In this document: in pieces, positions 8,948 through 60,086 of the stretch
How positions within the stretch are numbered: the first letter of the stretch is position 1
Layout: the number at the start of each line of letters is the position of its first letter
From: an uncultured Candidatus Rokubacteria bacterium
GTDB taxonomy: Bacteria > Methylomirabilota > Methylomirabilia > Rokubacteriales > CSP1-6
Direction: 5' to 3'
NCBI GenBank assembly: GCA_963758635.1
Contig: CAVWWD010000003.1
Span: forward strand, 1,018,292-1,082,291
Length of the DNA: 64,000 bases
The notes under the pieces: model-generated
Told to the model about the DNA's origin: nothing
What the model saw: the letters and a program-made list of their open reading frames with translations, nothing else
The model's database searches: none
Translations under genes and position numbers: made by a program

Positions 8948-8974
8948 CGGCGCGCGGTCCGCCCGCCCGGCCGG

Positions 8975-10271: not shown

Positions 10272-10284
10272 GAGAGCCTCCTGG

Positions 10285-10362
10285 TGAGCCCCGCGCATCA
10301 GACTAATGCCCAGCGGTGGGATTGTAGAGGCCCGTGGCGGTTACCGCAGTCTGAGAGAGTCA
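10285..10362 (+). repeat. Repeat family B copy
   Basis: TGAGCCCCGCGCATCAGACTAATGCCCAGCGGTGGGATTGTAGAGGCCCGTGGCGGTTACCG. Confidence 0.85.
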
Positions 10363-11356
10363 CTAGAACTTCACCGGGGCGGGCGGCATCTTGCCGCTCG
10401 CGTAGAGGGCGGGCAACTCGGGCGAGGCGTTCTCCCACACGAGCAGCATCGAGCGCTTCGGCGAGAAGCCACGGTGGCGAATGTCCGCGGGCATCGCCGC
10501 GACGTCGCCCGCCTTCATGGTCACCCGGGCGCGCATGGCGCCCGTCTCCCGGTCCTCCACCTCCCACTGGATCTCGTCGGAGAGCTGCACGAACCACTCG
10601 ACGCGGTCGTTGCCGTGGATGACGGGCAGGATGTACTCCTCCGTGGTCGGGCAGTAGAGGCTCGCCTTGCACACGGAGACCACCGACGGGTTCCACGTCA
10701 CGTCCGAGCGCGAGAGGTAGGCGAAGAGGTTGAAGGACACCACCTCGTCCTCGAAGCCGGGCTCGGGGCGCACGTCCGGCGCGTCCTGCGGCACGTCCGT
10801 GAAGTGGCGGTTGACGGGGAAGCCGTTGTCGTCGGTGCGGACCGGCTCGTCGCCGGGCGCGTTCACCATGCGCCGCGCCGTGACGCGGTGGCGGTTGATC
10901 GCCGCCTTGTTGCTGCCGTTCTTGGGGCCGAAGGCGCTGCCCGTCTCCTGCGGGCTCGCGAACGGATCGAAGGCGGCGTTCGTCCAGTCCTCCAGGATGG
11001 CCTCGAAGGTGCGCTGGATGAGCGGGGTGGTGAAGCGCTCGGTGTGGTCGAGGCCGGCCTTGCGGTAGTGCTCGTTGAACCGGCCGGCGAAGAGGTCGAC
11101 CGAGCCGTAGTGGTTCACCGTGCCCACCACCGCGTCGAAGTTCACGACGCCGTAGAAGAAGCCCCACGCGATGTCGCGCTGGAGCGCGCGCAGGAAGGCG
11201 TCGACGGGCACGAGGTGGTGGCCCTTCGGCCATCGCACCTCGGCGAAGTACTCGTCGCGGCTGAACGCGAAGCTCGCCGAGCGTGAAGCCGCGGTAGCCG
11301 TGGCGGTTGGGCTCGATGGACCCGATCTCGGGAAGATCGCTCGTCGTCTCGCTCAT
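10363..11356 (-). CDS. Hydroquinone 1,2-dioxygenase large subunit (HapD/PnpC2/HqdB-like), frameshifted near 5' end
   Basis: FLRALQRDIAWGFFYGVVNFD, LSRSDVTWNPSV, CPTTEEYILPVIHGNDRVEWF, MPADIRH. Confidence 0.85.
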
Positions 11357-11375
11357 GTGGTTCCTCCTCGCCCGC

Positions 11376-11888
11376 TCAGGCGCCCGGCTGCGGCGACGTC
11401 TGGCAGATCTCGCCCCAGCGCTCGACGGTGTCGGTCCCCGCGAGCGTCTGCAGGAGCACCACGCCCGGCGCGGCGGCGTGGAACTGGTAGGCCGCGCCCA
11501 CGGGCAGGAGCGTCATGTGCCCTCGCCGCGCGCGCACCACGCCCATCCGGCGGCCGGCCGGCGTCCCGGGGAGGCCGATCGACCCCGTGGCGCCCGCGGG
11601 CACGACGCCCGGGTCGGCGAGCTTCAGGAGCCGGATCTCCACCTCGCCGTCCATGACGAGGGCGAACTCGTCCTGGGCCGGCGCGCGCCACCCCGAGGTG
11701 CCCTCCGCGCGGATGGCCTCGATCACGTACTCGATGTTCTTGCCGACGGCGACCTTCTCGTAGGGCCGGGACTTCGACGCCACCTCGAAGATGTTCGAGA
11801 AGACGTAGTTCCGGGCGTCGTCGTTGACGACCTCGACGCCGCCCTTCTCGAAGTGGCGGAGCGAGCCGAACCGCGTGACCTGCTCCAT
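11376..11888 (-). CDS. Hydroquinone 1,2-dioxygenase small subunit (HapC/PnpC1/HqdA-like)
   Basis: FGSLRHFEKGGVEV, YVFSNIFEVA, PYEKVAVGKNIEYVIEA. Lies immediately upstream of the large subunit. Confidence 0.85.
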   Translation of the reverse strand: MEQVTRFGSLRHFEKGGVEVVNDDARNYVFSNIFEVASKSRPYEKVAVGKNIEYVIEAIRAEGTSGWRAPAQDEFALVMDGEVEIRLLKLADPGVVPAGATGSIGLPGTPAGRRMGVVRARRGHMTLLPVGAAYQFHAAAPGVVLLQTLAGTDTVERWGEICQTSPQPGA

Positions 11889-11989
11889 GTGGGCGCCTCC
11901 TGCTTTCGCCGTCGGGGCGCCTTCGCAAGGCTCCGGCGCCCGACGGTCGGGCATGTCAACCGTAGTGCGGTTTGCGGGACATCGCGCAG

Positions 11990-12901
11990 TCAGGCGACTT
12001 CCTTGTTCTCCGCGAAGTCCGCGGGGAGGGGCGGGCCCCAGAGGTAGAGGGCGTCCTCCAGCGCGAAGTCGCGCGGGGCCCAGGCGCAGTCCTCGGGGAT
12101 GTAGTCGAGGTCGTGGAAGTACTCGGCGAAGCCTCCCCACGGATCGCGGATGTAGTAGAAGAAGTTCGAGCCGATGACGTGGCGGCCGAGCCCCCAGCCC
12201 GGTTGCCAGCCGCGGTCCGCCATGTGCGCGGCGCCCGTCGCGATCTCGTCGATGCTCCCGACCTCGAACGACCCGTGATGGAACCCCGGAGCGCTCGAGG
12301 CGAGAAGCGCCAGGTTGTGGTGGTCGGTGTTGCACCTGATGAACGCGATGACGTCGCGCGAGCGGTCGGACAGACGGAGGCCGAGCACGCGCGTGTAGAA
12401 GTCGATCTGACGCTCGAGGTGGGGGGTGAACAGGAGCACGTGGCCGAGCCGCCGGGGCGTCGGCGTCTGGCCGCGCTCCGGGCAGCCGCGCACCGCCTGG
12501 CGCGGCGCGTGCCCCGGCCCGTTGAGCTGCACGGGCGGGTCGGAGGGCACCGCCTCCGCCGCGTCGTCGCGGACGTTGACGAGATGCCCGTCAGGATCGC
12601 GCACCCAGATGCCCCCCTCGGGCGCGCCGCGCGGCGGGTCGATCTCGGAGATGCCGGCGCCGCGCAGGGCCGCGCGCACCGCCGCGAACTCCTCCCCCGG
12701 CGCCCCGAACGCGAGATGGTGCAGGCGCTTGCGCGGCCCGCCGTACAGGAGCACGGTCGCGCGCTCCTGGCGAGACGTGCGAAGCCGGACGGCGTCGCTC
12801 GATCCCGTCGCGTCCACGAGGCCGAAGTCCTGGTAGTAGCGCTGGCCCGTGGTCTGGTCGGGAACCTCCAGCGCGTAGTGGAGCACTGACTTCACGGGCA
12901 T
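11990..12901 (-). CDS. Two-domain VOC-family protein (extradiol dioxygenase/glyoxalase-like)
   Basis: LGHVLL, DHHNLA, FHHGSFEV, GLGRHVIGSNFFYYIRDPWG..E. Confidence 0.85.
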   Translation of the reverse strand: MPVKSVLHYALEVPDQTTGQRYYQDFGLVDATGSSDAVRLRTSRQERATVLLYGGPRKRLHHLAFGAPGEEFAAVRAALRGAGISEIDPPRGAPEGGIWVRDPDGHLVNVRDDAAEAVPSDPPVQLNGPGHAPRQAVRGCPERGQTPTPRRLGHVLLFTPHLERQIDFYTRVLGLRLSDRSRDVIAFIRCNTDHHNLALLASSAPGFHHGSFEVGSIDEIATGAAHMADRGWQPGWGLGRHVIGSNFFYYIRDPWGGFAEYFHDLDYIPEDCAWAPRDFALEDALYLWGPPLPADFAENKEVA

Positions 12902-12920
12902 GCTCAGCTCCTTCGCTTCA

Positions 12921-13017
12921 GTTGTGAAAGAAGACGGATGTCGACGTCAGCGAGCGGGCTGACACCGCGGTTCTGCGAACACGCGCCCGTGCCGTCTCGC
13001 CGCCCATTCACGATCCC
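12921..13017 (-). repeat. Repeat family C copy
   Basis: Reverse complement GATCGTGAATGGGCGGCGAGA...GCAGAACCGCGGTGTCAGCCCGCTCGCTGA...TTCACAAC matches 27441 and 62121. Confidence 0.75.
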
Positions 13018-13018
13018 C

Positions 13019-13948
13019 TCAGGCGTCCTTGATCGTGTTCTCGAGCGTTCCGAGGCCGGTGATCTCGAGGCGGACGGTGTCGCCCGGCTGCAGCGTGACC
13101 TGCGGCTTGCGCGAGAACCCCACGCCGGCGGGCGTACCCGTCGCGATCAAGTCGCCGGGCTCGAGCGTCATGATGCCGGAGAGGTACTCGATGATGTAGC
13201 GCACGTCGAAGATGAAGTTCCGCGTGTTGCCGTTCTGCATGAGGGCGCCGTTGACCCAGGTCTTGAGGTCCAGCACGTGCGGGTCCGGGATCTCCGTGCG
13301 GTCGGCGATGTAGGGGCCCACCGGGGCCAGCGTGTCGCCGATCTTGCCCGCGCCCCACTGCGTGGTGTGGAACTGAAAGTCGCGCGCGCTCACGTCGTTG
13401 ACGATCGTGTAGCCGTAGACGTGGTCGAGGGCCTGCTCGCGCTTCACGTGGCGCGCCGTCCGGCCCATCACCACGCCCAGCTCCACCTCCCAGTCGAGCG
13501 TCTTCTCGCCGCGCGGCCGCAGCACCGGCTCGCCGGGATCCACGATCGTGTTGGCCCACTTGGGGAACACGGGCGGCTGCTTGGGCGCGGGATTGCCGGT
13601 CTCCGCCGCGTGGTCCTTGTAGTTGAGCCCGATGCAGATGAACTTGCCGGGATCCGCGATGGGGGCGTGGAGCCGGACCGAGCCCAGCGCGTGCGTCACG
13701 GCCTCGAAGCGCCCCGCGCGCGACGCGTCCATCATCTGGGCCAGGGCCTCCTGGCTCGCCACGCCGCCTTCCAGGAACCCGCGCGTGCTCGTCGGGAAGA
13801 GCGCGGCGGCGATGGACGCGGCCCGCACCACGTCGCGGCTGGCCAGGTGGGCGGCGTAGCTCGCCGCGAGGTCCATCACGCGGTCGGGGGCGGTGAGGGC
13901 CCCCAGCCGCGGGGCATGACCGTTCTGGGAGAACCTGACGATCTTCAT
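13019..13948 (-). CDS. Fumarylacetoacetate hydrolase family protein
   Basis: ICIGLNYKDHAAE, DWEVELGVV, NDVSARD, TGTPAGVG. RBS AGGAGG upstream. Confidence 0.92.
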   Translation of the reverse strand: MKIVRFSQNGHAPRLGALTAPDRVMDLAASYAAHLASRDVVRAASIAAALFPTSTRGFLEGGVASQEALAQMMDASRAGRFEAVTHALGSVRLHAPIADPGKFICIGLNYKDHAAETGNPAPKQPPVFPKWANTIVDPGEPVLRPRGEKTLDWEVELGVVMGRTARHVKREQALDHVYGYTIVNDVSARDFQFHTTQWGAGKIGDTLAPVGPYIADRTEIPDPHVLDLKTWVNGALMQNGNTRNFIFDVRYIIEYLSGIMTLEPGDLIATGTPAGVGFSRKPQVTLQPGDTVRLEITGLGTLENTIKDA

Positions 13949-14234
13949 GGCGATGACCTCCTGGGGTTCGGGTGACCTCGGGGGCGGATGCGCGAAGGAT
14001 GATAGCACCGCCCCGGGGCCCGGGCCACGGGCCGACGGGCCCGCGGGACCTCCGGCCGGGCTCGGAAGAGGGGGCTTTCCCCGGCGCCCCATCCCCTTGG
14101 TGACCCCCTGGGGTGCTGGTATAGTCACCGGTACTCCAGCGATCGTCCCTCGGTGGGGAGTGGAGTCGGCGGGTGGTGGCGGCTGGGGCGGGAGCGCCCC
14201 GAGACGGAAAAAGGAGCTGAGGAGGAGGCGTCCC

Positions 14235-44847: not shown

Positions 44848-45693
44848 TCAGCGCCCCTCGCGCCCGACCTGCTCGGCGTACGCGGTCCGGTAGCCGTCGT
44901 AGGACCGCGCGTAGGCGGCCCGGGCCGCCTCGTCCAGGTCGGCGGCCGGCGCCGGCTCGAGGTCGAAGTGGCCGAACGCGTCCACGCCGCGGACAAGCAT
45001 GGCAGGGGGCCGGTGCGCGCCGAGGTGGCGCACGTGGGTCGGGATGTAGCTGATCGCCAGGCCGATGCGACGCCCGTGCGAGCGGTTCGGCTGCGACCGG
45101 TGCAGGCACAGCGTGTGGTGGAGCGAGAACTCTCCTGGGCGCAGGGGTGCGTGGACGGCAGGCGCGTCGTCCACCTCTCCGACGATGGCCTGACCCGCCC
45201 GGTTCACGCTGTCGGTGACCACTCCCGCCCGATGAGGCCGCTGCCCGCCGGCGTGGCTGCCCGGCAAGAACTCCATGCACCCGTTCGTGGCCGTCGCATC
45301 GGTGAAGGCGAGCCATGCCGTCACGTGCGCATACGGACGCAGGCCGAAGTAGGTGGCGTCCTGATGCCAGGCGGCGATAGCCGCCGTGTCCGGCTCCTTG
45401 ATGAACCAGGTCGAGGTGTACACGAGGATGTCGGGACCGATCAGGTCCTCGACGGCATCCAGGATGGCGGGGTGCCGAGCGAGGCCGTACACCCACGCCA
45501 GGAGGACGTGCGTCCGTGAACGGTAACGCGGATCCGTCGCGTCGGACGTGAGCGGCCCGCCCACGGCCCGCTCGAACGCTTCGAGCTTTCCTCGGTACTC
45601 CGCGGCCTCTTCACTCGTGAGCGCCACGACGGGCGACACGAAACCATCGCGCTCGTAGCTGGCCACCTGGGCCGACGACAGCTTCCGCGGCAT
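44848..45693 (-). CDS. Phytanoyl-CoA dioxygenase (PhyH)-family Fe(II)/2OG oxygenase
   Basis: YERDGF, WHQD, NGCM..PGSH, LHRSQPN.S..RR. Confidence 0.9.
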   Translation of the reverse strand: MPRKLSSAQVASYERDGFVSPVVALTSEEAAEYRGKLEAFERAVGGPLTSDATDPRYRSRTHVLLAWVYGLARHPAILDAVEDLIGPDILVYTSTWFIKEPDTAAIAAWHQDATYFGLRPYAHVTAWLAFTDATATNGCMEFLPGSHAGGQRPHRAGVVTDSVNRAGQAIVGEVDDAPAVHAPLRPGEFSLHHTLCLHRSQPNRSHGRRIGLAISYIPTHVRHLGAHRPPAMLVRGVDAFGHFDLEPAPAADLDEAARAAYARSYDGYRTAYAEQVGREGR

Positions 45694-46490
45694 GGTCAGG
45701 TCACTCTCGCGTCGGGATCGAACCGGTGCGCCGATTCTGCGTTACCGGCACGTGCCCTGGCAAGGGACGCCTCCGGTCCCGAGGCAAGCGCGTCGGATGA
45801 CCGCGCCCCGCCTCTGGCGGCCGTGCGCTACACCGCAGCGGCCGCAGGCCAACGGGTGGAGGCCGAGCGGGTCAGGCCGGCCAATGGGCACGAACGGGCG
45901 GTTGGAATGCTCGATAGCCCTGAGCTATGATGCAGCAGCCCGGGAACCCGCATGGATAGCGGGGTTCCGCGTGTCCCGCTCCCAGGTAGCGCTACCACGG
46001 CCCAAAACCGGCCCCGATGGCAGGGGCAGCCATCATCCCCGCTACGCGCGTCAATGGTCCGGGTCACCTGCTCCCGGACCATGTGTCCGCGTGACCGGTG
46101 GGTGGACGTGGTCTGGTTCACCTGCGGCTCCCTGCCATTCTGTTGACGGGATTCCTTACATCTGGCGACCCTAGTCTGCCGGCCACAATTTGGCTGGACT
46201 GCCGATGCCACATAACTGTAGGCCCTGCTGGTAGTTCACCTGGTTTGGCCACTTTTGTCATCAGTGGCACGTCGGCTGCACCTGGGACGGCGGCCCTGTG
46301 CGGGCAATCACGCCAGGGGTGGGGCGCGGAAACTCTGGAGAGCCTGGGGCACAGGCGGAAGGCGGGCTGGGGGTGAAGTGGACTTGTCTGCGGTGTGGGG
46401 AGCAACGGCTATGACCTGGGCTGGGTGGTTTGCCATCCTCCCTCACCGGCACGAGCAGGGTGCAGCGTAGTCTTCAATGGAGGAAGAGCC

Positions 46491-49400
46491 ATGGACATGC
46501 CCACTTTGCCTTCCGTCTTGACGGAAGCCGAGCGTAGCCGGCTCCTGGTCGAGTGGAACGAGACCAGCACCCCGTATCCCCGGGACAAGAGCATCGCGGC
46601 CCTGTTCGAGGCCCAGGTGGAACGGACCCCCGACGCTGTCGCCGTCGTCAGCAGGGAGGCGTCGATCAGCTATCGGGAGATGGAACGGCGGGCCAACCAA
46701 CTCGCCCGCCACCTGCGGGGACTCGGCGTAGACCGGGGCACGTTTGTCGGCGTCTGCCTCGACCGATCCGCAGACCTGGTCGTGGCGTTCCTCGCGACCC
46801 TGAAGGCCGGGGGCGCCTATGTCCCGTTGGATCCCTCCTATCCGGCGGAGCGCCTGGCGTTCATGCTGCAGGATACCCGCGCGCGAGTCCTCCTGACCGA
46901 GGAGCGCCTCCGCGCGACGTTCCCTGCCGGCGCGGCCCGCGTTGTCTGCCTCGACAGTGACTGGCCTACGATCGCGCGCGAACCCGAAGGGCCGCCCGAG
47001 GGCAGCGCGCGCGCAGACGACCTCGCCTATGTCATCTATACCTCCGGCTCCACGGGGACTCCCAAAGGGGTCGCGGTACCCCACCGCGCCATCGCCCGCC
47101 TTGTCCTCGGTGCCGACTACGTGCAGCTCGCGCCGGACGATGTGGTCGCCCAGGCCTCCAATGCCGCCTTCGATGCCGCCACATTTGAAATCTGGGGGGC
47201 GCTGCTCAACGGTGCCCGCCTCACGATCGTGCCCCACGACGTGGTGCTCTCACCGCCCGATCTGGCCGCCCACCTGGCGCGGCACCGGGTCACCACGTTG
47301 TTCCTGACGACGGCACTCTTCAACCAGTGTGCCCATCAGGTGCCGACAGCCTTCCGGTCGCTGCGCCACCTGCTGTTCGGCGGCGAGGCCGTCGAACCGC
47401 GGTGGGTGGCGGAGGTCCTCCGGAACGGACCTCCCGAGCGCCTGCTCCACGTCTACGGTCCCACGGAGACGACCACCTTCGCCACGTGGTACCGGGTCGA
47501 GAGCGTGCCGGAACAGGCCGCCACCATCCCCATCGGCCGACCCATCGCCAACACGCAATGTTACGTGCTCGATGAGCGGGGCAACCCGGTGGCCATCGGC
47601 ATGCCGGGGGAACTGTACATCGGGGGCGACGGGCTGGCGCGCGGTTACCTGCACCGTCCCGAACTGACGGCCGAACGGTTCGTCGCGCACCCGTTCAGCG
47701 CCCACCCGCCGGCGCGGCTCTACCGGACAGGGGACCGCGTCCGCTACCGGGCCGACGGGGCCATCGAGTTCCTCGGCCGATTCGACGACCAGGTGAAGAT
47801 CCGCGGCTTCCGTGTGGAACCGGGCGAGATCGAAGCGGCGCTGGCGGCCCTGCCGGCGGTACGCGAGGCCGTCGTGATGGCCCGCGAGGACCCGGCGGGG
47901 GAGCGGCGCCTCGTGGCCTATGTGGTTCCCCGCGATCCGTCGGCCGGCGGCGCGGCCGAGCTGCGTGCTTCCCTCAGGGAGAGGCTACCGGAGTACATGG
48001 TGCCGGCGGTGTTCGTGTTCCTTGATGCGTTGCCCTTGAATCCCAACGGCAAGGTGGATCGATCTGCGCTTCCGGTGCCTGAAGCCCTTCCGCCGGACGC
48101 GGGGGAGGCTTTCGTGGCGCCCCGCACTCCGTCGGAGGAACTGCTGGCGGGGATCTGGGCCGAGGTTCTCGGAATCGCGCACGTCGGCGCCCACGACAAC
48201 TTCTTCGACCTCGGCGGTCATTCCCTCAAGGCCGGACAGATCGGCGCCCGCGTGCGGGACCTCTTCCAGGTCGAACTCCCCCTGCGCAGCCTCTTCGAGA
48301 ATCCCACCGTGGCTGGGCTCGCAGGGATCCTCGAGCAGATCGGACGCGAAGGACACCCGCCCGAGCCGCCCATCGTGCCCAGGCCGCGGGAGGGCCGGCT
48401 TCCCCTGTCCTTCTCGCAGGAGCGGGTGTGGTTCATCCAGCAGTTGGCGCCCGACAACATTGCATACAATTTCCAGACCGCGCCCCGGATCATGGGACCG
48501 CTCGATGCGGCGGTCCTGGAGCGATGCCTCAGTGAGATCGTCCGGCGGCATGAAAGTTTCCGCACCACCTTCCCTGCGGTGGATGGCGCGCCGACCCAGG
48601 TGATCCATCCGGCCCGACAGGTGAAGCTGCCGGTGGTGGACTTGTCGTCGGTGCCTGCGCCCGAGCGTGACGCGGCCGCCGAGCGCATCATCCACGAGGA
48701 ATTCCGAAAGTCTTTCGATCTCACGCAGCTCCCGCTGATCCGGTGGACCCTGGTCCGGCTGGACCCTCGGGAGCACCTCCTCCTCCACGTGGAGCATCAC
48801 GTCGTCCACGACGGGTGGTCCTTCAATGTCTTCCTCCGCGAGCTGGTGGACCTCTACACAGCCTTTTCTCAGGGGCACCCCTCGCCCCTGCCCGAGTTGC
48901 CGGTTCAGTTCGTGGACTTCGCCTGTTGGCAGCGGGAGTGGATGCAGGGCCAGGTGGCGGAGGACCAACTCGCGTACTGGCGACAGAAGCTGACGGGAAG
49001 CGCCCCGGTCCTGGAGCTGCCTACCGATCGACCGCGCCCGCCGGTGCGGCGGTTTCAAGGTGCAGCGCCGCGGTTCGAGCTGCCGCCGGACCTTTGCGAG
49101 AGCTTGCGGGCCCTCAGCCGACAGGAGGGCGTCACGCTCTTCATGACGATGCTCGCGGGCTTCGTGACGCTGCTGCACCGGTACACCGGGCAGACGGACA
49201 TCCCCGTGGGGTCCGGCATCGCCAATCGCCGCTGGCGCGAGACCGAAGGGCTCATCGGGATGATCATCAATAACGTCGTCCTGCGGGCCGATCTCTCCGG
49301 CGACCCCTCGGTGCGGGAGCTGTTGCCGCGTGTGCGCGAGGTGGTCCTGGAGGCCAGCGCCAACCAGGACGTGCCGTTCGACCGAGTGGTGGAAGCCCTT

Positions 49401-52400
49401 CAGCCCAAGCGCGATCTCAGCCACAACCCGCTCTTCCAGGTGATGTTCAGCTTCCACGACGAGCCGATGCCCAACCGGCACCTGCCGGGGCTCACCGTGC
49501 GGGACCTCATGGTCCGGAGCAACGGCTCGGCCAAGTTCGACATGGGCCTGGTCGTGGCTCCCCATTCGGCCCAGTGCATCGCGGAAGGCAAGGGGGGGGG
49601 CCGCGACGGGTTGACCGTTGTCTGGGAGTACGATACGGACCTTTTCGGCGAGGCGACGGTCGGTCGCATGATGGGGCACTACCAGACGATCCTCGAGGCG
49701 ATGGTGCGGGACCCTGCCCGGCCGCTCTCGGCTATCGACCTCCTGTCCGAGAGCGAACGGCATCGGCTCTGCGTCGAATGGAACGCCACCGCGAGGGACT
49801 ATCCGAAGGACGCCAGCCTCGCCGCCCTCTTCGAGGTGCAGGCGGCGCGAACGCCTGACGCGCTGGCGGTAGCCTCTGGAGAGAACCGCCTAACGTACCG
49901 GGACTTGAACCGGCGGGCCAACCAGTTGGCCCACTACCTACGTGCCTTGGGCGTGGGACCGGAGGTGTTGGTAGCAATCTGTATGGACCGCTCCCCGGAG
50001 ATGGTCATCGGGCTCCTGGGCATCCTGAAGGCGGGTGGGGCGTACGTGCCATTGGATCCGGATTATCCGAGGGAGCGGCTCGGGTACATCTTGGAGGACT
50101 CCAACGCTTTGATCGTATTGACGCAGCAATCGCTCACACACCAACTGCCGAGCTTTGCCGGAAGATCTATTTGTCTTGACGCGAACTGGAACGAAATAGC
50201 CGCTGCACCCGTGGAGAATCCCGTCACACAGGTAAAGACAGAACACCTGGCGTACGTGCTGTTCACATCAGGATCAACCGGCAGGCCCAAAGGCGTAGCC
50301 ATTGAGCATCGCAGGGCCGTAAACTTCGTCCAGTGGGCACAGGAGGTCTTCTCCGCAGCGGAACTCGAGGGCGTATTGTTTTCTACATCGGTGTGCTTCG
50401 ACTTGTCCATCTTCGAGATGTTTGTCACTTTGAACGCAGGCGGTACCGTCATCCTGGCGCCGAATGCGCTCCACCTGCCCACGCTGCCATGCAAGAACGA
50501 CGTGACCTTGATCAACACTGTCCCGTCCGCCATCGCCGAATTGGTGCGGATGGGAGCGATTCCACCTTCGGTCAAGACAGTGAATCTTGCCGGTGAGGCT
50601 CTGCCTGATGCGCTGGTGGAGCAGATCTACGCAACGACAAATGTCAGCAGCGTCTACAACCTTTACGGACCGACCGAGACGACTACATACTCCACGTACA
50701 CACGGGTTCCTCGCGGCGGCCCGGTCACCATTGGCCGGCCCATCGCCAACACCCAGGTATACATTCTGGACGGGAATTATCAGCCGGTGCCGGTGGGGAT
50801 CGTGGGAGAACTGTTCATCGGGGGCGATGGGGTGGCCCGAGGTTATCTCAATCGACCCGAATTGACTGGTGAGCGGTTTATCTCCAACCCCTTCGACCCA
50901 ACGGGAGACGGCAGGCTCTACCGAACCGGCGATCGGGCTCGCTTTCGCGTGGACGGCACAATTGAGTTCCTGGGGCGGGCCGACAACCTGGTGAAACTCC
51001 GGGGCTTCCGGATCGAGCTGGGCGAAATCGAGACTGTCCTGGGCCAACACGCCCAGGTGCAGGCGGCAGTCGTGGTGGTCGGCCAGGCGTCCCCCGGGGA
51101 CCCTCGCGTGATGGCCTACGTCGTACCGCGCCCCGGAATCGTCCCGACCGGCGGAGACCTGCGACGTTTCCTCGAGGAGAAGCTCCCCGAGTACATGGTG
51201 CCCTCCGCGTATCGTGTGGTGGAAGCGCTGCCGTTGCTGCCCAATGGCAAAGTCGATCGCCAAGCGCTGGCGGCGCTGGAGCCGATGCCCTCCGAGCGGG
51301 AAACGGCCTACGTCGCGCCCCGCACGCCGGTAGAGGAGGGCTTGGCACAGATCTGGGCCGAGCTCTTGCACGTGGAGCGGGTGGGTGTTCACGACGACCT
51401 CTTCGAGCTGGGCGGCCACTCCCTGCTGGCCGCCCGGGTCATGGCCCGCGTGTGCGACGTTTTTCAGGTGCAGGTGCCACTCCGACGCCTCTTCGAGAAG
51501 CCCACCGTGGCGGACCTGGCTGAAGGCATCGAAATGGCCCGCGCTGTGGTGCATGGCGAGGAAGCTGTGCCGATCCGGCCCGTCCCCCGAGAGGGTCCAT
51601 TTCCCCTGTCCGTTACCCAGATGCGGTTCTGGCTCCTCGATCAGTTGCAGCCTGCCAGCGTCAATAATCTCCCCTACTTCTTCCGCATCACGGGCCCGCT
51701 GGACGTGGCGGCGCTCAGGCACAGCCTCCAGGCGGTGGTGAATCGGCACGAAGTCTTGCGCACGATATTCCCCAGCCAGAATGGCCAGCCGCGGCAAGTC
51801 ATTGTCCCCGAACTGACCGTGGCGATCCCAGTCATCGATCTGCAAAATATCCCGGAGGGAGAACGGGAGGAACGGGCACGGCAGACGTGCGCCGAGGAGG
51901 AACGTCGGCCCTTCGACCTCGGGGGCGGTCCGCTGGTCCGGGCCCTGCTGTTGCGGCTGGGCGAGTGCGACCACATATTTCACCTGAACCTGCACCACAT
52001 CGTCAGCGACGCGTGGTCAATGAGCGTTCTGAAACGCGAGATCGCAGTCGAGTACGGAGCGATCCGGGCCGGGGAGCCCTCGCCGGTGCGGCCGCTCCCC
52101 ATCCAATATGCGGATTTCACTGTGTGGCACCTGAAGCGTCTGCAAGGGAAAATGGGGGAAGCACAGCTTGCCTATTGGAAGCGCCAGCTTGCCGGGGACC
52201 TTCCAGTTCTCGAGCTACCGACCGACCGTCCGCGGCCGCCCGTCCAGACCTTCCGGGGTACGCAGGAACCCCTCACCCTCTCCCAGCCCCTCTGCCGGGG
52301 GCTCGCGGCGCTGAGCCAACGGGAGGGGGCCAGCATATTCATGACGCTCCTGGCGGCCTTCCAGCTCCTCCTGCATCGCTACACGGGGGCCGACGATGTC

Positions 52401-54755
52401 GTCGTGGGCGCGCCGGTGGCGGGCCGCGACCGGGTCGAGGTCGAAGGACTCCTCGGCTGTTTTCTCAATACCCTGGTCCTCCGCACCGACCTCTCCGGCA
52501 ACCCCACGTTCCGGGAGCTGCTGGGACGGGTCCGCGAGGTTGCCCTGGGCGCGTACACCCACCAGGACGTGCCCTTCGAGAAACTGGTGGATGAATTGCG
52601 CCCGGTGTGGGACCCAAGTCGAACGCCTCTCGTCCAAGTGATGCTCAACATGCATAACTTCTCGGATGGCGAGTTCCCGTTGCCCGGACTCACCGTGACA
52701 CGACTCCCCAACTTCCAGATCGAACCGATGTACGACCTGAGCTTGTTGTACCGGGAATCGGAGGAAGGCATCACCGGCCATTTCGAGTACAACACTGACC
52801 TCTTCGACCGGGCCACGATTCGCCGGTTGCTCGGGCACTATCAGACCCTCTTGGAAGGCATCGTGGCCACGCCGGACCGCCCTATTGGCGAACTCCCGCT
52901 CCTGACGGACGCCGAGCGGCACCAGCTCCTGGTCGCCTGGAACGCGACGGCGACGGCCTACCCCCGGGACGCCTGCATTCATACCTTGTTCGAGGCGCAA
53001 GTTGCGCGGACCCGCGACGCCGTCGCCCTCGCCTGGGACGGCGGGACACTGACCTATGCCGCGCTCAATGCCCGCGCTAACCAACTTGCTCATCGCCTGC
53101 GGGCCCTCGGCGTCGGCCCCGACACCCTGGTCGGCGTCGCCCTGGACCGCTCCCCCGACCTTATCGTCGCCCTCCTGGGGATCCTCAAGGCCGGGGGGGC
53201 CTATTGTCCCCTCGACCCCGAGTACCCCCCGGACCGACTGGCATTCATGTGCCAGGACGCCGCCCCGGCCGTGATCCTCACCACCACGGCCCTGGGCGCC
53301 CGACTCCCCGCGACGGCCGTCCTCCTCCGTCTCGACGCCGAGGCGGCGGCCCTCGCCCAGGAGGCCACGGCCAATCCCCCTTGTCCGGCCACCGGCGACA
53401 GCCTCGCCTACGTCATGTACACCTCGGGTTCCACCGGCATGCCGAAGGGCACGGCCATCCCCCAGCGCGGCGTCGTCCGCCTCGTGCAGGGGACGGACTA
53501 TGTCCACTTCGGGCCCGACGAGGTGTTCCTCCAGTTCGCGCCGATCTCCTTCGATGCCTCCACCTTCGAGATCTGGGGAGCCCTGTTGAACGGGGCCCGG
53601 CTGGTTCTTGCCCCCCCCGACCGCACGGCCCTGGCGGACCTGGGAGCTCTCTTGCGGCGCCACCGCGTCACCACGCTGTGGCTCACGGCGGGCCTCTTCC
53701 ACCACATGGTGGATCACCACCTGGAAGATCTCGCCGCCGTCCCCCAGGTCCTGGCCGGAGGCGACGTCCTCTCGCCGCCGCACGTCCAGCGGGCCCTCGC
53801 CGCCGGCGTCCGCTGTCTCATCAACGGCTATGGGCCCACCGAGAACACAACCTTCACCTGTACCCACACCCTCACCGACCCCGCCCAGGTGAACGGACCC
53901 ATCCCCATCGGCCGACCCATCGCCAACACGCAATGTTACGTGCTCGATGAGCGGGGCAACCCGGTGGCCATCGGCATGCCGGGGGAACTGTACATCGGGG
54001 GCGACGGGCTGGCGCGCGGTTACCTGCACCGTCCCGAACTGACGGCCGAACGGTTCGTCGCGCACCCGTTCAGCGCCCACCCGCAGGCGCGGCTCTACCG
54101 GACAGGGGACCGCGTCCGGTACCGGGCCGACGGGGCCATCGAGTTCCTCGGCCGATTCGACGACCAGGTGAAGATCCGCGGCTTCCGTGTGGAACCGGGC
54201 GAGATCGAAGCGGCGCTGGCGGCCCTGCCGGCGGTACGCGAGGCCGTCGTGATGGCCCGCGAGGACCCGGCGGGGGAGCGGCGCCTCGTGGCCTATGTGG
54301 TTCCCCGCGATCCGTCGGCCGGCGGCGCGGCCGAGCTGCGTGCTTCCCTCAGGGAGAAGCTACCGGAGTACATGGTGCCCTCCGCGTATCGTGTGGTGGA
54401 AGCGCTGCCGTTGCTGCCCAATGGCAAAGTCGATCGCCAAGCGCTGGCGGCGCTGGAGCCGATCCCTTCCGAGCGGGAGACCGCCTATGCCGCTCCTGAA
54501 ACTCCGGTGGAACAGAGCCTGGCTCAGATCTGGGCCGATCTCTTAGGCGTGGAGCGGGTAGGTATTCACGACAACTTCTTCGAATTGGGGGGCCATTCCT
54601 TACTTGCGACCCGCGTTCTCGCGCGGGTGTGGGACCGGCTTGGGGTGAACGTTCCTCTCGCGTCGTTGTTTGAGAACCCGACGGTCGCGGGGCTGGCCGT
54701 TGCCATCACCCAGCGAATATTGGGCGATGTCCCGCCGGCGGTTGAACGTGGATGA
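46491..54755 (+). CDS. Trimodular NRPS A1-T1-C1-A2-T2-C2-A3-T3 with no terminal TE/R domain
   Basis: Three A domains ((Y/F)TSGSTG.PKG, YGPTE, YRTGD, NGKVDR), three GGHSL carrier sites, and C motifs EHHVVHDG and HHIVSDA. ATG at 46491 follows GGAGG. Confidence 0.95.
53899..54379 (+). repeat. 481-bp near-identical intragenic repeat of 47524-48004
   Basis: Direct comparison of the two segments; about 3 mismatches seen by eye. Confidence 0.9.
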
Positions 54756-54935
54756 GCACGACGGCTCGGGTGCCGAGCATATCGCGCGCGACGCTCGTGA
54801 AGCCGCGCCAATCATTGGTGGGATGATGGAAAACAGGGGCGGCAATCGTACGCCCTGATCATCCCCCCAATTGGGGTGTGTCTTGAACCTCCCCATGAAT
54901 CGGCACGTGTCTCCAACGCCCCGGCTTGTCGTTTG

Positions 54936-55685
54936 ATGAGATCGCCGTCGAATCGCTGGATTGCATGGCGCGTCGGGGAACCATCTGCCCGGATCCGACT
55001 CTTTTGCAGTCCCTATGGGGGAGCAGGTGCGTCCATCTTTCAAGGTTGGTCGACGATGCTTCCACCTCAGATCGAGCTGTGCGCGCTCCTGCCGCCCGGG
55101 CGGGAGCGTCGGATGCACGAGCCTCCCTTTGAGCATATCGACTCGCTCATCGATAGTTTGGGCAAGGCCATCGAACCGTTCTTGGATCGTCCCATCGCTC
55201 TCTTTGGCCACAGCATGGGTGCGCTGATCAGCTTCGAGCTCGCACATCATCTCAAGAGTCGCCTCCGTGCGCAGCCGATTCACCTCTTTGCTTCGGGTAT
55301 GAGCGCGCCACAGCTCCCGAGGAAGCAGCTCTATCATCTTCCCGAAGACGAGTTCGTCTGCGAGCTCCGCAAGTTGAATGGGATGCCCAAGGAAATTCTC
55401 GATAATCCAGAGCTCATGTCTGTTCTCCTCCCTCGCCTCCGCGCTGACTTCAAGCTATGCGACACGTACGCATACTCGGCCCGGGACCCTCTGGACTGCC
55501 CAATCACGGCCCTCGGCGGAATCGACGATTCAGATGTTCCCCAAAGTGATCTCCTTGCGTGGCGCTCGATGACGCGTGGCCGCTTTGAGATGCAGCGTTT
55601 TCCGGGGGATCATTTCTTCATAGATTCAGCGCGTGAGTCGCTGCTCGCGCTCCTTTCCACCGAGCTCTCGCGATATTTGCAGTAA
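54936..55685 (+). CDS. Stand-alone type II-like thioesterase (GrsT/RifR family)
   Basis: LFCSPYGGAGAS, PGRERR, FGHSMG, LRADF, FPGDHFF. Confidence 0.93.
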   Translation: MRSPSNRWIAWRVGEPSARIRLFCSPYGGAGASIFQGWSTMLPPQIELCALLPPGRERRMHEPPFEHIDSLIDSLGKAIEPFLDRPIALFGHSMGALISFELAHHLKSRLRAQPIHLFASGMSAPQLPRKQLYHLPEDEFVCELRKLNGMPKEILDNPELMSVLLPRLRADFKLCDTYAYSARDPLDCPITALGGIDDSDVPQSDLLAWRSMTRGRFEMQRFPGDHFFIDSARESLLALLSTELSRYLQ

Positions 55686-55766
55686 CGTTGATTTGGGAGC
55701 ACCGCGGCGTGCCCGAGGCATACGAGCTGGTAAGGACCTCGGAGCGACCGCGAAAGGAAAGCCCGA

Positions 55767-56633
55767 CTACAGCGCGGTGATGAGGTAGACGCCGAACACG
55801 ATCAGGAGCGTGCCCACGACGACGCGCCACGTGAGGCGCTCGACGCCGCGGAGGAACAGGGGGGACAGGACGAGGACGAAGATCGGCGCGGTGGCGGCGA
55901 GCGGCGTGACGACGCTCACCGTGCCGAGGCCCAGCGCGATCAGGATCAGGAACACCCCGAGGTTCTCGGCGATCCCCGCGGCCACGAAGTAGGCCGCGCT
56001 CCGCCACGGGCACGCGATGGCCCGCAGGTTGCCGGACACGGCCAGGAACAGCGTGAACGCCACGAGCGCGGTCGTCACGTTGATCGCGAAGCCCGGTACC
56101 GGGCTCATCGTGGAGAGCCCGAGCTTTCTCAGGATCTGCACCACGCCGAAGCACGTCGCGGAGAGGAGCGGCAGGGCGAGGTGCGCGGGGCGGAAGCCCA
56201 TCTGGCTGCCACTGAGCGAAAGGAGCACGGTCCCGCCCACGATCACCGCGGTGCCGGTGAGGATGGCCGCGGTCACCTGCTCGCCGAGGAGCAGGATGGC
56301 GAGCGCGGTGGAGACGAACGGGAAGAGGTTGTTGAGGGCGGAGGCCACCGACGCGCCGACCTTGTCGATGGCGTAGAAGCGCAGGAGCCGGCCGGCCACC
56401 GTGCCCACGAGACCGGCGAGGACGAAGAAGGCCACGCCCTCGAGGCGGAGCGGCTCGACCTGCCCGCGGAGGAGAAGCACGGACCAGAGGCCGACCGTGC
56501 CCACCGCCACGTTGACCCACACGCCGCCGTAGGGCGTCCCGCCGCGGAGGCCCTGGCGGATCAGGATCGCGGAGGCGGCCGACGCCACGGCGCCCCCGAG
56601 CGCCAGCGCATAGACGGTCGCGGGCACCGGCAT
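55767..56633 (-). CDS. EamA/DMT-family transporter
   Basis: Two EamA repeats, ending ILLLGEQVT and LFLRGVERLT. Confidence 0.85.
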   Translation of the reverse strand: MPVPATVYALALGGAVASAASAILIRQGLRGGTPYGGVWVNVAVGTVGLWSVLLLRGQVEPLRLEGVAFFVLAGLVGTVAGRLLRFYAIDKVGASVASALNNLFPFVSTALAILLLGEQVTAAILTGTAVIVGGTVLLSLSGSQMGFRPAHLALPLLSATCFGVVQILRKLGLSTMSPVPGFAINVTTALVAFTLFLAVSGNLRAIACPWRSAAYFVAAGIAENLGVFLILIALGLGTVSVVTPLAATAPIFVLVLSPLFLRGVERLTWRVVVGTLLIVFGVYLITAL

Positions 56634-56673
56634 GGGCTCGTCGTCGAGCTTCTGGCCCGGCGCGGGTCGCGCG

Positions 56674-57754
56674 TCAGGCGAGCGGGAGGCGGATCGTGCG
56701 CCCCTCGGCGATCGAGCGCGCGACGGCGTCCACGAACTCCATGTACGCGACACCGTCGTCGAACGACGGGTACACCGGCGTGCCCTCGCGGATGGCGCGG
56801 GCGAAGTCGGCCTCCACCGTCCACTCGCCGCGGAGGTCGGCCGGGATCTCCACCGGCTGGGCCACCTGCTTCTCGCCGGGCTGGCCGGGCCGCACGCGCC
56901 GCGACGGGTCGGCCTTGCCCATCCAGATCCGGTGGGTCGGCACCTCGTAGCGGAGCATGCCCTTGGTGCCGTAGAGCTCGATGGTGTCGGCGGGCGCGAA
57001 CGCGCTCACGCCGGAGAAGAGCCACTGGTACTGGGCGCCGGACGCGAGCTCGCCGGAGATGGTCACCGACTCGGGCACCCGGACCTCCTTCATCGTGCCC
57101 GTCTCGGCGTCGCGGCGCTCGCGCGTGAAGATCGAGCCGGTGGCCGTGACCGTGCGGGCGGGGCCGACCCAGCGCTGGAGGATCTCCGTGAACATGCCCA
57201 GCGTGAGCACATTGTGACCGGAGATGTCGCGATCCATGCGCCAGTGGTACGGCGCGTCCGCGGACAGGTTGGCCTCGGACATGTGGTGGAAGCGCACGAG
57301 GCGGAGGTCGCCGAGATCGCCCGCGTCGAGGATCTTCCGCACCACCCGGTCGCCCGCGTCCACGTGGGGGGCCGGGCAGATCATCGTCACCAGGCGCGGG
57401 TAGGCCCGGGCCGCGGCCAGCATGTCGCGCGCCTCGGCGAGGTCGCGCGCCATCCGGGCCTGGCAGAACACGTGCTTGCCCGCGGCGAGGGACTTGAGCG
57501 TCAGCTCCTTGTGCAGGTACGGCGTGGTGCCGATGAGGACGGCGTTGATGTCGGCGCGCCCGTAGACGGCCTCCGCGCTGTCGACCACGTGCGGGATCTT
57601 CCACTCCGCGGCCACCGCCTCGGCGTTGGCGCGGCGGCGATTGTGCACGGCGACGACCTGGCAGTCGTCGACCTTGGCGAGTCCGGGGAGATGTCGCGTC
57701 TTCACGATGCCGCCCGCGCCGATGATGCCGATCCGGATGGGTGTCTGGGCTCAT
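56674..57754 (-). CDS. Gfo/Idh/MocA oxidoreductase (5' frameshift)
   Basis: IGIIGAGGI, INAVLIGTTPYLH, AGKHVFCQARM. Confidence 0.88.
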
Positions 57755-57931
57755 GGCGGCCATACTGGCCCAGGACGGAGGCCGGCGCAATGGCATCCGC
57801 CGAGGGATCAATTGACCGGCCCCCCGCGATTCCGGTACCTTCGGCCGGCGCCGCGGCGGATTGTTGCGCGAGGGTCTGACGCCCGGTCTGACCCCAGTGT
57901 TGCGCGACGCCGCGGCGGGGAGGAGGGACGC

Positions 57932-58390
57932 ATGCCGGTCGACAAGAGCTACATCGGCAAGACGGGCGCGCCCGTCGTGATGCACGTGGAGCGCGGGAAG
58001 ATCCGGGAGTTCGCCGCGGCGATCAAGGAGGACGATCCGGTGTACGTGGACGAGGGGCTGGCCGCGAAGGAGAGCGGCGGGATCATGCCGCCCATCACCT
58101 TCCTCCAGACGGTGACCCACTGGGACGACGGGCGCGGGCGGGTGCGCCTGCCCTTCGACCTCAAGCGCGTGCTCCACGGCGAGCAGGAGTACGAGTTCTT
58201 CGAGCCGATCCGCGTGGGCGACGTGCTCACCGCGGTGAGCCGCGTGCTGGACATCTACGAGAAGCCGGGCAAGCGCGGCGGCTCCATGAACTTCGCCGTC
58301 ACCGAGACGACCTACACCAACCAGCACGGCCGCGTGGCCGCGAAGGCCAAGCACATCACGATCGAGACCGGCCAGGTGGTCAAGGACTAG
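57932..58390 (+). CDS. MaoC-like dehydratase, N-terminal hotdog subunit
   Basis: VERGKIREFAAAI, LHGEQEYEF..PIRVGDVL. RBS GGAGG. Confidence 0.88.
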   Translation: MPVDKSYIGKTGAPVVMHVERGKIREFAAAIKEDDPVYVDEGLAAKESGGIMPPITFLQTVTHWDDGRGRVRLPFDLKRVLHGEQEYEFFEPIRVGDVLTAVSRVLDIYEKPGKRGGSMNFAVTETTYTNQHGRVAAKAKHITIETGQVVKD

Positions 58391-58400
58391 GGATAGCTTT

Positions 58401-58463
58401 GCGAGCCGAGCCGAGAGGCGAGGCGAGCGTATATGGGAACGCCGTGGAAACAACCGGCGACGC
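58401..58463 (+). repeat. Repeat family A copy
   Basis: GAGCCGAGCCGAGAGGCGAGGCGAGCGTATATGGGAACGCCGTGGAAACAACC. Confidence 0.75.
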
Positions 58464-58479
58464 TGAAAGAGAGGACGCC

Positions 58480-59046
58480 ATGCCCGCGAAGCGGTACTTC
58501 GACGACGTGAAGGAAGGCGAGGCGCTTCCCGAGGTCCGTGTGGAGGGCCTGACCCGGACCGATTTCGTCCGCTACGCGGGCGCCTCCGGCGACTTCAACC
58601 CGATCCACCACGACCAGACCTTCGCGGAGGCGTCGGGCAACCCCACCGTGTTCGCCATGGGCATGCTCAACGCGAGCATCCTGAGCCGGGTCGTGACGCG
58701 CTTCGTGGGCCGGCCGGCGGTGCGCCGCTACAAGGTGCGCTTCGCGACCCGCGCGTGGCCAGGCGACCACGTGATCTGCACCGGCAAGGTCACGCGGAAG
58801 TTCGAGGAGGCGGGCGAGAAGCGGATCGAGGGCGAGCTCGCCGCGGTGAACCAGAAGGGCGAGACGCTCATCTCCGGCTCCTTCGTGGCCGCGCTGCCGT
58901 CGCGGACGTTCCTGACGATCGAGCCTCAGCGCATCAGACCAATGCCGAGCGGTAGGACTGTAGGGGCCCGTCGCAGCTACCGCCTTCTGCGAGGCTCATT
59001 AGTGAGCCTCAGCGCATCAGACCAATGCCGAGCGGTGGGACTGTAG
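58480..59046 (+). CDS. MaoC dehydratase catalytic subunit (true end probably near 58915)
   Basis: YAGASGDFNPIHHD hydratase motif. The ORF reads through into repeat B. Confidence 0.88.
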   Translation: MPAKRYFDDVKEGEALPEVRVEGLTRTDFVRYAGASGDFNPIHHDQTFAEASGNPTVFAMGMLNASILSRVVTRFVGRPAVRRYKVRFATRAWPGDHVICTGKVTRKFEEAGEKRIEGELAAVNQKGETLISGSFVAALPSRTFLTIEPQRIRPMPSGRTVGARRSYRLLRGSLVSLSASDQCRAVGL

Positions 59047-59081
59047 GGGCCCGTCGCGGTTACCGTATTCTGCGAGGCTCA
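58921..59081 (+). repeat. Repeat family B, tandem pair (58921-58998, 59003-59081)
   Basis: Two near-identical units GAGCCTCAGCGCATCAGACCAATGCCGAGCGGT...TTCTGCGAGGCTCA separated by TTAG. Confidence 0.9.
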
Positions 59082-59692
59082 TTGGCGCCCCCGCTCACGA
59101 AGGGGTTGCCGCGGACCCAGAAGCGCCAGGGGCGGTCGACCCACTCGTCCGCGTAGTCGATCCCCACCCGCGGTCCTGCCGCCACCGCCGTCCGCGGGAC
59201 CGCGCGCGGTCCCGCCTCGATCCACGCCCGCTCGCCCAGGAGGTCCGCGCCGTCGAGCCGCCGGTCGATGCCGAGGGCGGCGCACAGCTTGCCCGGGCCG
59301 CTCGTGAGCGCGTGGTCGGGGCGCCCGGGCCGGCGCCGGCGCATCAGCTCGACGCCCTCGAGGGGCTCGAGCGCCCGCACCAGGACGGCGTGCGGCACGT
59401 CGGCAGCGTTGGTGACCACGTTGAACTGGTGGTACATGCCGTACACGAAGTACACGTAGGCGGTGCCGCCGATCGCGTACATCGTCTCGGTGCGGCGCGT
59501 GCGCCGGCCGCCCCACGCGTGCGAGGCCCGGTCCTCGGGCCCGCGGTAGGCCTCGGTCTCCACGATCACGCCGGACACGCGCCGCCCGTCGCGCGCCGGC
59601 ACCACCAGCACCCGCCCCAGGAGATCTCGCGCCACGGCGAGGACGCTCGGCCGCGTGTAGAACTCGCGCGGCAGCCTGGGCCGCGGGCCCAC
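59060..59692 (-). CDS. mpg: DNA-3-methyladenine glycosylase (AAG/MPG family)
   Basis: IVETEAY, YVYFVYGMY, AVLVRALEP, SGPGKLC, PRVGI, PWRF. Confidence 0.93.
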   Translation of the reverse strand: MGPRPRLPREFYTRPSVLAVARDLLGRVLVVPARDGRRVSGVIVETEAYRGPEDRASHAWGGRRTRRTETMYAIGGTAYVYFVYGMYHQFNVVTNAADVPHAVLVRALEPLEGVELMRRRRPGRPDHALTSGPGKLCAALGIDRRLDGADLLGERAWIEAGPRAVPRTAVAAGPRVGIDYADEWVDRPWRFWVRGNPFVSGGANEPRRIR

Positions 59693-59699
59693 CGGGGCG

Positions 59700-60086
59700 T
59701 CAGCTCTTCTTGAAGGCGCCTTCCGCCTCGAGCGTCATGAGGGCCGTGACCCCCGCGCTCAGCGTCGGCCCGCCTCCCGGCACCGCCGCCGCCTGCACCG
59801 CCTCCAGCAGCTCGCGCTTCGTCGCGCCGTGGTCGATGGCCCGCCGCATGTGGGCGACGACGCCGTCGGTGCGGCCGCGGAACGCCAGGATGCCGATGAT
59901 GACCATCTCCCGATGGCGGACCGACAGCTCCTTGCCCTCGCTCACCGACATCGTGCTCACCGCCTGGCGCGCCGCCGCGTACTCCGGCGCTTCCCGCGCC
60001 AGCCACTCCGTCCACGCGTAGCCGTAGGGGCTCCGCGCTCCGCCGCCCGCCTTCTTCCGCCCGCTCGCCGGCCGTGCCTTGCCCAT
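59700..60086 (-). CDS. Carboxymuconolactone decarboxylase (CMD)-family protein
   Basis: LSVRHREMVIIG, HMRRAIDHGATKRELLE, PGGGP. Confidence 0.8.
   Translation of the reverse strand: MGKARPASGRKKAGGGARSPYGYAWTEWLAREAPEYAAARQAVSTMSVSEGKELSVRHREMVIIGILAFRGRTDGVVAHMRRAIDHGATKRELLEAVQAAAVPGGGPTLSAGVTALMTLEAEGAFKKS

Follow-up and report, generated by a model that had tools for sequence, protein, structure and literature searches.

A three-module nonribosomal peptide synthetase with a ureido-type condensation domain and a neighbouring thioesterase gene in an uncultured Rokubacteria genome

Introduction

Nonribosomal peptide synthetases (NRPSs) that build ureido peptides use a specialised condensation (C) domain, here Curea, whose signature EHHXXHDG Yu and van der Donk report in all ureido C domains of MIBiG and in no other C domain there; mutating the motif Glu and His of SnaA lowered activity to the detection limit (PMC11212132). 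In such lines the terminal residue comes from the loading adenylation (A) domain and the internal one from the module that follows. How the ureido link forms is not yet settled, and the same source discusses alternative routes (PMC11212132). We analyzed a 64,000-nt stretch of DNA from an uncultured Candidatus Rokubacteria bacterium (contig CAVWWD010000003.1), hereafter the window, within which positions are counted; the host genome (G000) spans 6.17 Mb in 12 contigs and is 87% complete. The window carries an NRPS gene and, beside it, a thioesterase (TE) gene (Table 1), and the first C domain of this NRPS very probably forms a ureido link.

The sna (threopeptin) cluster of Stackebrandtia nassauensis resembles this locus in its A-T-Curea-A-T start (T, thiolation domain), its EHHxxHDG motif, its lack of a fused TE and its stand-alone TE gene; SnaA, however, passes Arg-CO-Arg to a polyketide synthase (PKS), a PEARL enzyme and a dehydrogenase to give an enone warhead (PMC11212132), whereas the locus has a third C-A-T module fused on, predicted aliphatic residues and no adjacent tailoring gene. 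The anabaenopeptin starters AptA, ApnA and AnaA share the loading A-T and Curea with the locus, and an AptA-like domain from Calothrix has 58% identity to the first C domain of the locus (C1); Ile occurs as an exocyclic anabaenopeptin residue (PMC8402340). The original prediction, made from the letters of the window, had likened the locus to an anabaenopeptin starter; the likeness extends to A-T-Curea-A-T only, as position 2 has an Ala and not a Lys code, there is no epimerization (E) domain, T2 reads GGHS, and the line has three modules instead of six, without the five-residue ring, the macrocyclising module or the cyclising TE. Syringolin SylC and the antipain group have Curea chemistry in common with the locus and differ in module layout; syringolin carries an aliphatic Val-CO-Val end, and both it and the antipain group carry electrophilic warheads (macrolactam enone, aldehyde) that the locus does not encode.

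The pseudovibriamide, pseudobulbiferamide, bulbiferamide and chitinimide NRPSs are likewise collinear and ureido-capped, the mbp system also having a discrete TE (PMC10616845), but they have at least six modules, a Phe/Tyr-CO-Dhb start (ppp/mbp and chm types), heterocycles and fused TEs. Nearer in taxonomy, a genome of the same order (G040) holds two uncharacterised compact Curea lines, loci L033 (three-module) and L034, with the closest C1 relatives (64%) and with Curea followed by Val- or Ala-like codes; these end in a fused TE, L034 has an adjacent phosphopantetheinyl transferase (PPTase) gene, and contig ends truncate the first A domain of each. Judged by its domains and codes, the locus encodes neither an anabaenopeptin nor a threopeptin pathway. 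Titles and abstract openings of the openly accessible literature, a scope that leaves MIBiG and subscription journals outside, showed no cluster that matches it and no Ile-CO-Ala-Val; the papers found for Ile-CO were on cyanopeptides.

Architecture of the synthetase and its condensation domains

The NRPS reading frame is unbroken along its whole length and follows a ribosome-binding GGAGGA (46479-46484), with its ATG 6 nt further on. Pfam recognised three AMP-binding, three AMP-binding_C, three PP-binding and two Condensation domains in the protein, and neither a TE nor any further domain type; the T-domain motif LGGHS is present in all three T domains. The A-T-C-A-T-C-A-T order that had been proposed for this gene is thus borne out by domains in one intact open reading frame (ORF), and the two contrasting C-domain motifs, EHHVVHDG and an ordinary HHIVSDA, lie where they had been placed. 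The rule on which that proposal relied, that EHHxxHDG marks ureido-forming C domains, also agrees with published work (PMC11212132).

Table 1. Features of the NRPS-thioesterase locus, in window positions (MT, methyltransferase; R, reductase)
Feature	Position	Strand	Remarks
NRPS gene	46491..54755	+	2,754 aa; A1-T1-C1(urea)-A2-T2-C2-A3-T3; E, MT, R and TE domains absent
A1, loading module	46605..48053	+	code DAFFLGVTFK (Ile, some Val)
A1 stretch repeated in A3	47524..48004	+	481 bp, 3 mismatches to 53899-54379
T1	48138..48335 (limits approximate)	+	LGGHS at 48210-48224
C1, ureido-type condensation domain	48399..49760	+	EHHVVHDG at 48792-48815
A2	49839..51275 (limits approximate)	+	code DLFNNALTYK (Ala)
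T2	51339..51524	+	LGGHS at 51408-51422
C2, amide-type (LCL-like) condensation domain	51597..52931	+	HHIVSDA at 51993-52013
A3	52998..54455 (limits approximate)	+	code DAFWLGGTFK (Val); mosaic
A3 copy	53899..54463	+	53899-54379 matches A1; 54366-54463 identical to A2 51189-51286 (98 bp)
T3, final domain of the line	54516..54710 (limits approximate)	+	LGGHS at 54585-54599
Stand-alone type II thioesterase	54936..55685	+	GHSMG ... GDHFF; alternative start GTG 54876

C1 is the first extension C domain after the loading A-T, with T domains carrying the active Ser on both sides. Its motif is not a chance occurrence, since only three places among the genome's 38,787 six-frame ORFs have EHHxxHDG; C domains account for two (C1 and C8:1273610-1277140), and the third has no C-domain match. 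For comparison we assembled a set of 191 full-length C domains, C1 and C2 included, that covers the window, the genome loci L011, L033 and L034, 80 loci from GTDB and a single plasmid locus; 41 of the domains carry EHHxxHDG. In a FastTree phylogeny of 95 rows (these 41 and 54 of the 150 others) all 41 motif bearers fell on one side of a branch with SH-like support of 100, C1 among them and C2 outside; in an IQ-TREE phylogeny of 29 rows (15 motif bearers and 14 others) all 15 motif bearers, C1 included, grouped at 100/99 support, again with C2 outside. The group of C1 includes the Calothrix protein, which has the A-T-C-A(Lys-like)-T-E build of an anabaenopeptin starter. The phylogeny that had been called for to place C1 sets it apart from LCL domains and with other motif bearers, among them the Calothrix domain, which is AptA-like by build.

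C1 is 64% identical to the two G040 domains, 61% to the second copy in its own genome and 55-60% to proteobacterial domains, compared with up to 50% to ordinary C domains. Five secondary Curea-type motifs, taken by eye from a published alignment (PMC11212132), are all present in C1 and all absent from C2; they occur in 27, 30, 30, 18 and 14 of the 41 motif bearers as against 2, 1, 0, 4 and 2 of the 150 others. By eye, C1 also has long stretches in common with AptA_Cu and AnaA11_Cu in the published alignment. The HHxxxDA of C2 is shared with 20 of the 150 non-urea C domains. By each sequence feature tested, the NRPS is Curea-initiated and C2 is an ordinary amide-type domain.

Predicted substrates

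We extracted the A-domain codes by motif anchoring and cross-checked them on HMMER alignments to solved A domains. A1 differs at two of nine core pocket positions from SrfA-C, whose pocket we take to be that for Leu; A2 has McyA (8JBR) as its best solved relative, with all nine core positions shown equal; and A3 has PA1221, presumably a Val-specific domain, with one of nine differing. All three codes (Table 1) are exact matches to published pockets: that of A1 gives Ile and Val in OciB-A5 and OciC-A7 of cyanopeptolin (PMC2533009) and recurs in Ile modules of the suomilide and aeruginosin pathways (PMC13122637), that of A2 is the Ala pocket of McyA2 (PMC3640908 Table 2), which activated L-Ala in vitro (bioRxiv 2023.11.13.566838), and that of A3 is a Val pocket in MlcM (PMC9113097). 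The strings given by the original prediction were recovered unchanged, with support from the alignments to solved domains, and its Ile, Ala and Val assignments agree with the published ones (PMC2533009, PMC13122637, PMC3640908, PMC9113097).

A3 consists of its own specificity core, then an A1-derived part and then an A2-derived part. A contig of an independent study (54158-54601, 2 differences) bridges the mosaic junction, and in three runs contigs leave the repeat by its A1 exit, with no one contig covering the whole stretch; on these grounds we rejected an assembly artefact. The mosaic fits gene conversion between modules, by analogy with what is described for microcystin synthetases (PMC3640908).

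The thioesterase and the proposed product

The neighbouring gene, the one evident partner of the NRPS, 180 bp downstream of it and on the same strand, encodes a discrete alpha/beta hydrolase of about 250 aa with GHSxG and a conserved Asp and His, residues to which we assign the usual catalytic roles. It is nearest to RifR, SrfAD and YbtT; its best PDB match is RifR (E 1.9e-51), followed by other discrete TEs, the fused TE of ObiF1 reaching only 4e-8. A tblastn search of the genome returned no paralogue of its type, and the end of the NRPS and the start of the TE gene are bridged in an independent contig (54487-55018). Type II thioesterases (TEIIs) are mostly editing enzymes, yet are able to release final products (PMC9730843), and product hydrolysis in the sna ureido cluster has been proposed for the stand-alone SnaD (PMC11212132).

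We propose that the NRPS makes L-Ile-CO-L-Ala-L-Val, released as the free diacid by the neighbouring TEII, a reading predicted from sequence to which we give an even chance. By inference from characterised relatives, A1 would load Ile on T1 and A2 Ala on T2, C1 would link the Ile and Ala amines through a bicarbonate-derived carbonyl, leaving the Ile carboxyl free (chain reversal), and C2 would attach Val through a normal amide; all residues would remain L because there is no E domain. The TEII would then hydrolyse the T3-bound tripeptide to the free diacid, the weakest step of the scheme. The predicted product is C15H27N3O6 (345.190 Da, [M+H]+ 346.197), and a Val congener is likely besides the Ile form. 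For its PPTase and MbtH-like protein the pathway would depend on distant loci of the host genome, namely PPTase-family genes at C8:208975 and C8:1233891 and an MbtH gene at C3:660089, 400 kb off. The compact all-aliphatic ureido tripeptide pathway proposed at the outset keeps its Curea start and its three aliphatic codes; its release step, and hence its final product, is uncertain, and Curea NRPSs, compact ones among them, proved common in uncultured bacteria.

Third-position GC content (GC3) is 0.71-0.88 in NRPS segments and 0.67 in the TE gene, whereas four flanking genes have 0.96-0.98 and a PhyH gene has 0.88. Because GC3 is lower than in the flanking genes, the composition suggests that the two genes form a horizontally acquired cassette; an empty insertion site was searched for in relatives and not found. 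The divergent PhyH dioxygenase gene (44848-45693) is unsupported as a tailoring gene: 3 of 60 relatives (G013, G014 and G020) have 81-83% identical orthologues without an NRPS in the 20, 4 and 6 kb fetched. Nor is there evidence for the EamA gene (55767-56636) as an exporter, as it is convergent and has a host-like GC3 of 0.98. Between the NRPS and TE genes, an ATG that overlaps the NRPS stop (ATGA) opens a 24-codon ORF (54752-54826), possibly a relic of a lost subunit; neither it nor the intergenic stretch had a match among the proteins searched. Upstream of the NRPS, a non-coding stretch of about 190 bp (46169-46356) is 78% identical to G000:C11:74681-74861, which lies upstream of a small gene; it has no copy in 60 relatives, no Rfam match and no unusual RNA fold (z -0.07). 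An Rfam search of the window gave no match, and promoter scans gave matches of only 9/12, with no terminator found.

Recurrence of the locus

The stretch, or part of it, is contained in 20 of the 24 runs listed, from 10 studies. Over 47990-60000 we compared contigs of four runs from four soil or rhizosphere studies and found them near-identical, with no piece covering everything; an independent contig (48188-49211, 2 differences) covers the C1 motif. The 90% cluster of the NRPS adds four fragments from two other assemblies, 91-96% identical, which retain EHH(I/V)VHDG, the motif of C2 and the codes of A1 and A2. Since the locus turns up in four studies of soil or rhizosphere and in two further assemblies, it is no artefact of assembly.

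No coding indel was among the variants listed in the four-run comparison, and most of the coding variants listed are synonymous; with the motif and codes retained in the two other assemblies, this speaks for a gene that is maintained. From the NRPS to the end of the TE gene the list has a single indel, an extra base after 54862, outside both ORFs; this extra C in a C-run, present in two independent studies, is likely a homopolymer slip in the assembly of the window. A short element close to where the MPG gene ends (about 59012-59083) stands out in all four runs by its very high summed depth and numerous loose ends, and is probably a common repeat. Near-identical contigs of RNA run X18 match parts of the NRPS, and almost none match the TE; it has no silent control, and we did not count it as expression.

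Alternative explanations

Several points weigh against the proposed pathway. The product is a prediction from sequence, and codes are not always a safe guide: for SnaA, three tools all failed to predict Arg (PMC11212132). The motif counts are biased, as part of the loci had been retrieved by means of the pattern HHVVHDGW and C1 was in view when we picked the secondary motifs; the tree rows include no experimentally characterised Curea sequence, so that the tie to characterised enzymes is the motif and the by-eye reading of the alignment. TEIIs usually edit, and all five compact relatives checked with Pfam (L033, L035, L036, L089 and L104) end in a fused TE; an NRPS without its own release domain beside a TE of type II leaves release as the weakest step. 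The excess of synonymous changes (10 of 16 listed coding variants versus 26% expected, p=0.002) was counted from 40 of 267 variant rows without a mutation model.

The absence of a fused TE also suits a line that hands its ureido tripeptide from T3 to an unlinked partner (an NRPS subunit, an amine acceptor or a reductase), with a TEII that edits only and a real product that is larger or warhead-bearing. In sna and the sna-like loci L055 and L081 a Curea NRPS and a discrete TE are paired with a further megasynthase (ketosynthase-acyltransferase-T in L055), and the genome, itself incomplete, has several other NRPS loci. These other loci, however, have TE matches of their own, and no PKS, reductase, PEARL, dehydrogenase or extra (C-starting) NRPS gene is adjacent to the locus. 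A genome-wide PEARL search gave 0 matches, as did its control search, and PF07993 matches are weak (best E 6e-15) and lie on other stretches; we consider hand-over in trans rather unlikely. A shortened remnant of a longer ureido-peptide cluster, its terminal TE-bearing subunit lost, would give little product or shunts such as Ile-CO-Ala, and could account for the ATG that overlaps the NRPS stop and for the recent mosaic in A3; the related lines L033 and L035 indeed continue into a C-A-T-TE subunit. Yet the 24-codon ORF and intergenic stretch match no protein searched, the frame is intact, the variants are mostly synonymous and an independent study shows the NRPS-TE junction again, and decay of this kind seems to us improbable.

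The two remaining alternatives keep the line and change its chemistry. Curea domains are close to LCL domains, the motif rule comes from limited examples (PMC11212132) and C1 retains its identity of up to 50% to ordinary C domains, so C1 might form an ordinary amide and the product be Ile-Ala-Val or a derivative; the exact motif, the five of five secondary motifs, the fully supported clade and the typical place right after the loading A-T make this very unlikely. The urea link and TEII release may instead hold with main residues that differ from the codes (for example Val or Leu first), as the A1 code gives both Ile and Val in cyanopeptolins (PMC2533009) and lies two positions from the SrfA-C pocket; with three of three codes exactly matching published Ile, Ala and Val pockets, we find this very unlikely.

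Distribution and other Curea lines

At E<=1e-135 (at most 6 candidates scored per genome), C1 matched 4 of 251 genomes of the phylum, and among these four only G000 and G040 hold the motif, the domains of G051 and G015 being ordinary. Outside the phylum Curea lines are widespread, with 12 more in 80 metagenome loci; the Ile/Ala/Val order was absent from the other Curea lines read in the collected loci. The best plasmid match to C1 was 55% identical, a search of plasmids with the 40-aa motif region found nothing, and no ppp/mbp plasmid was among the best C1 plasmid matches listed. Large protein libraries queried with C1 gave multi-domain NRPSs in order of summed score, a ranking that was uninformative.

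The host genome has a second Curea NRPS, L011 (G000:C8:1261500-1277140, minus strand), with EHHMTHDG, 61% identity to C1, about five modules and a fused TE; it has many frameshifts after the first C domain, owing to sequencing error or decay. Loci L036, L039-L046 and L058, from Nitrosomonas, Rhodoferax, Pelagibius and other proteobacteria, form a tight family of A-T-Curea-A-T proteins of about 1,940 aa with a tail of about 260 aa (a Pfam TE in L036), at about 8000-13950 on the plus strand (981-6806 in L039, 3719-9511 in L044). Both of their A-domain codes are, we assume, Gly-like, and on that basis the family would make a Gly-CO-Gly-type compound; we know of no product for it. EHHLVHDG domains occur mid-line, after a C-A-T module, at L050:5960-12952 and L059:3-11795 in Thermoanaerobaculia, the preceding code in L050 presumably being for Lys or Orn. 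A Streptomyces genome has a tandem pair of A-T-Curea-A-T NRPS genes (L102:2-13171), and a four-module line, A-T-Curea-A(Val)-T with two C-A-T subunits, recurs in soil metagenomes (L153, L162, L167, L169-L171, L173, L174 and L179).

Implications

Rokubacteria are abundant uncultured soil bacteria whose biosynthetic potential has been noted, though seldom a large number of condensation domains (bioRxiv 818815). The locus described here does not extend known chemistry: its domain class, the position of that domain and the helper genes have all been described already, while the product is apparently undescribed. To our knowledge, no structurally defined natural product has come from this lineage.

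The fullest reading of the locus, which we hold to be doubtful when all its parts are taken together, is that of a minimal two-gene ureido-peptide pathway in which the TEII is the dedicated release enzyme and the warhead-free Ile-CO-Ala-Val diacid acts as a carboxypeptidase-A-type inhibitor, like a bare anabaenopeptin "tail". Anabaenopeptins with Ile or Tyr beside the urea are the best carboxypeptidase A inhibitors, their linear part mimicking a C-terminus (PMC8402340). Because the free Ile-urea end resembles this inhibitory part, a metallocarboxypeptidase is the most reasonable target, and inhibition of carboxypeptidase-A-type enzymes is, by this analogy, a speculative role; potency may be low, since the product would have no channel-blocking ring. 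What the locus predicts is precise: two genes would join three common amino acids into a synthesisable compound with one exact mass. Ureido formation could conveniently be studied in such a small, all-aliphatic line. If the pathway is as proposed, it would provide a structurally defined, easily synthesised natural product and, for work on Curea chemistry with non-basic substrates, a system of unusually small size.

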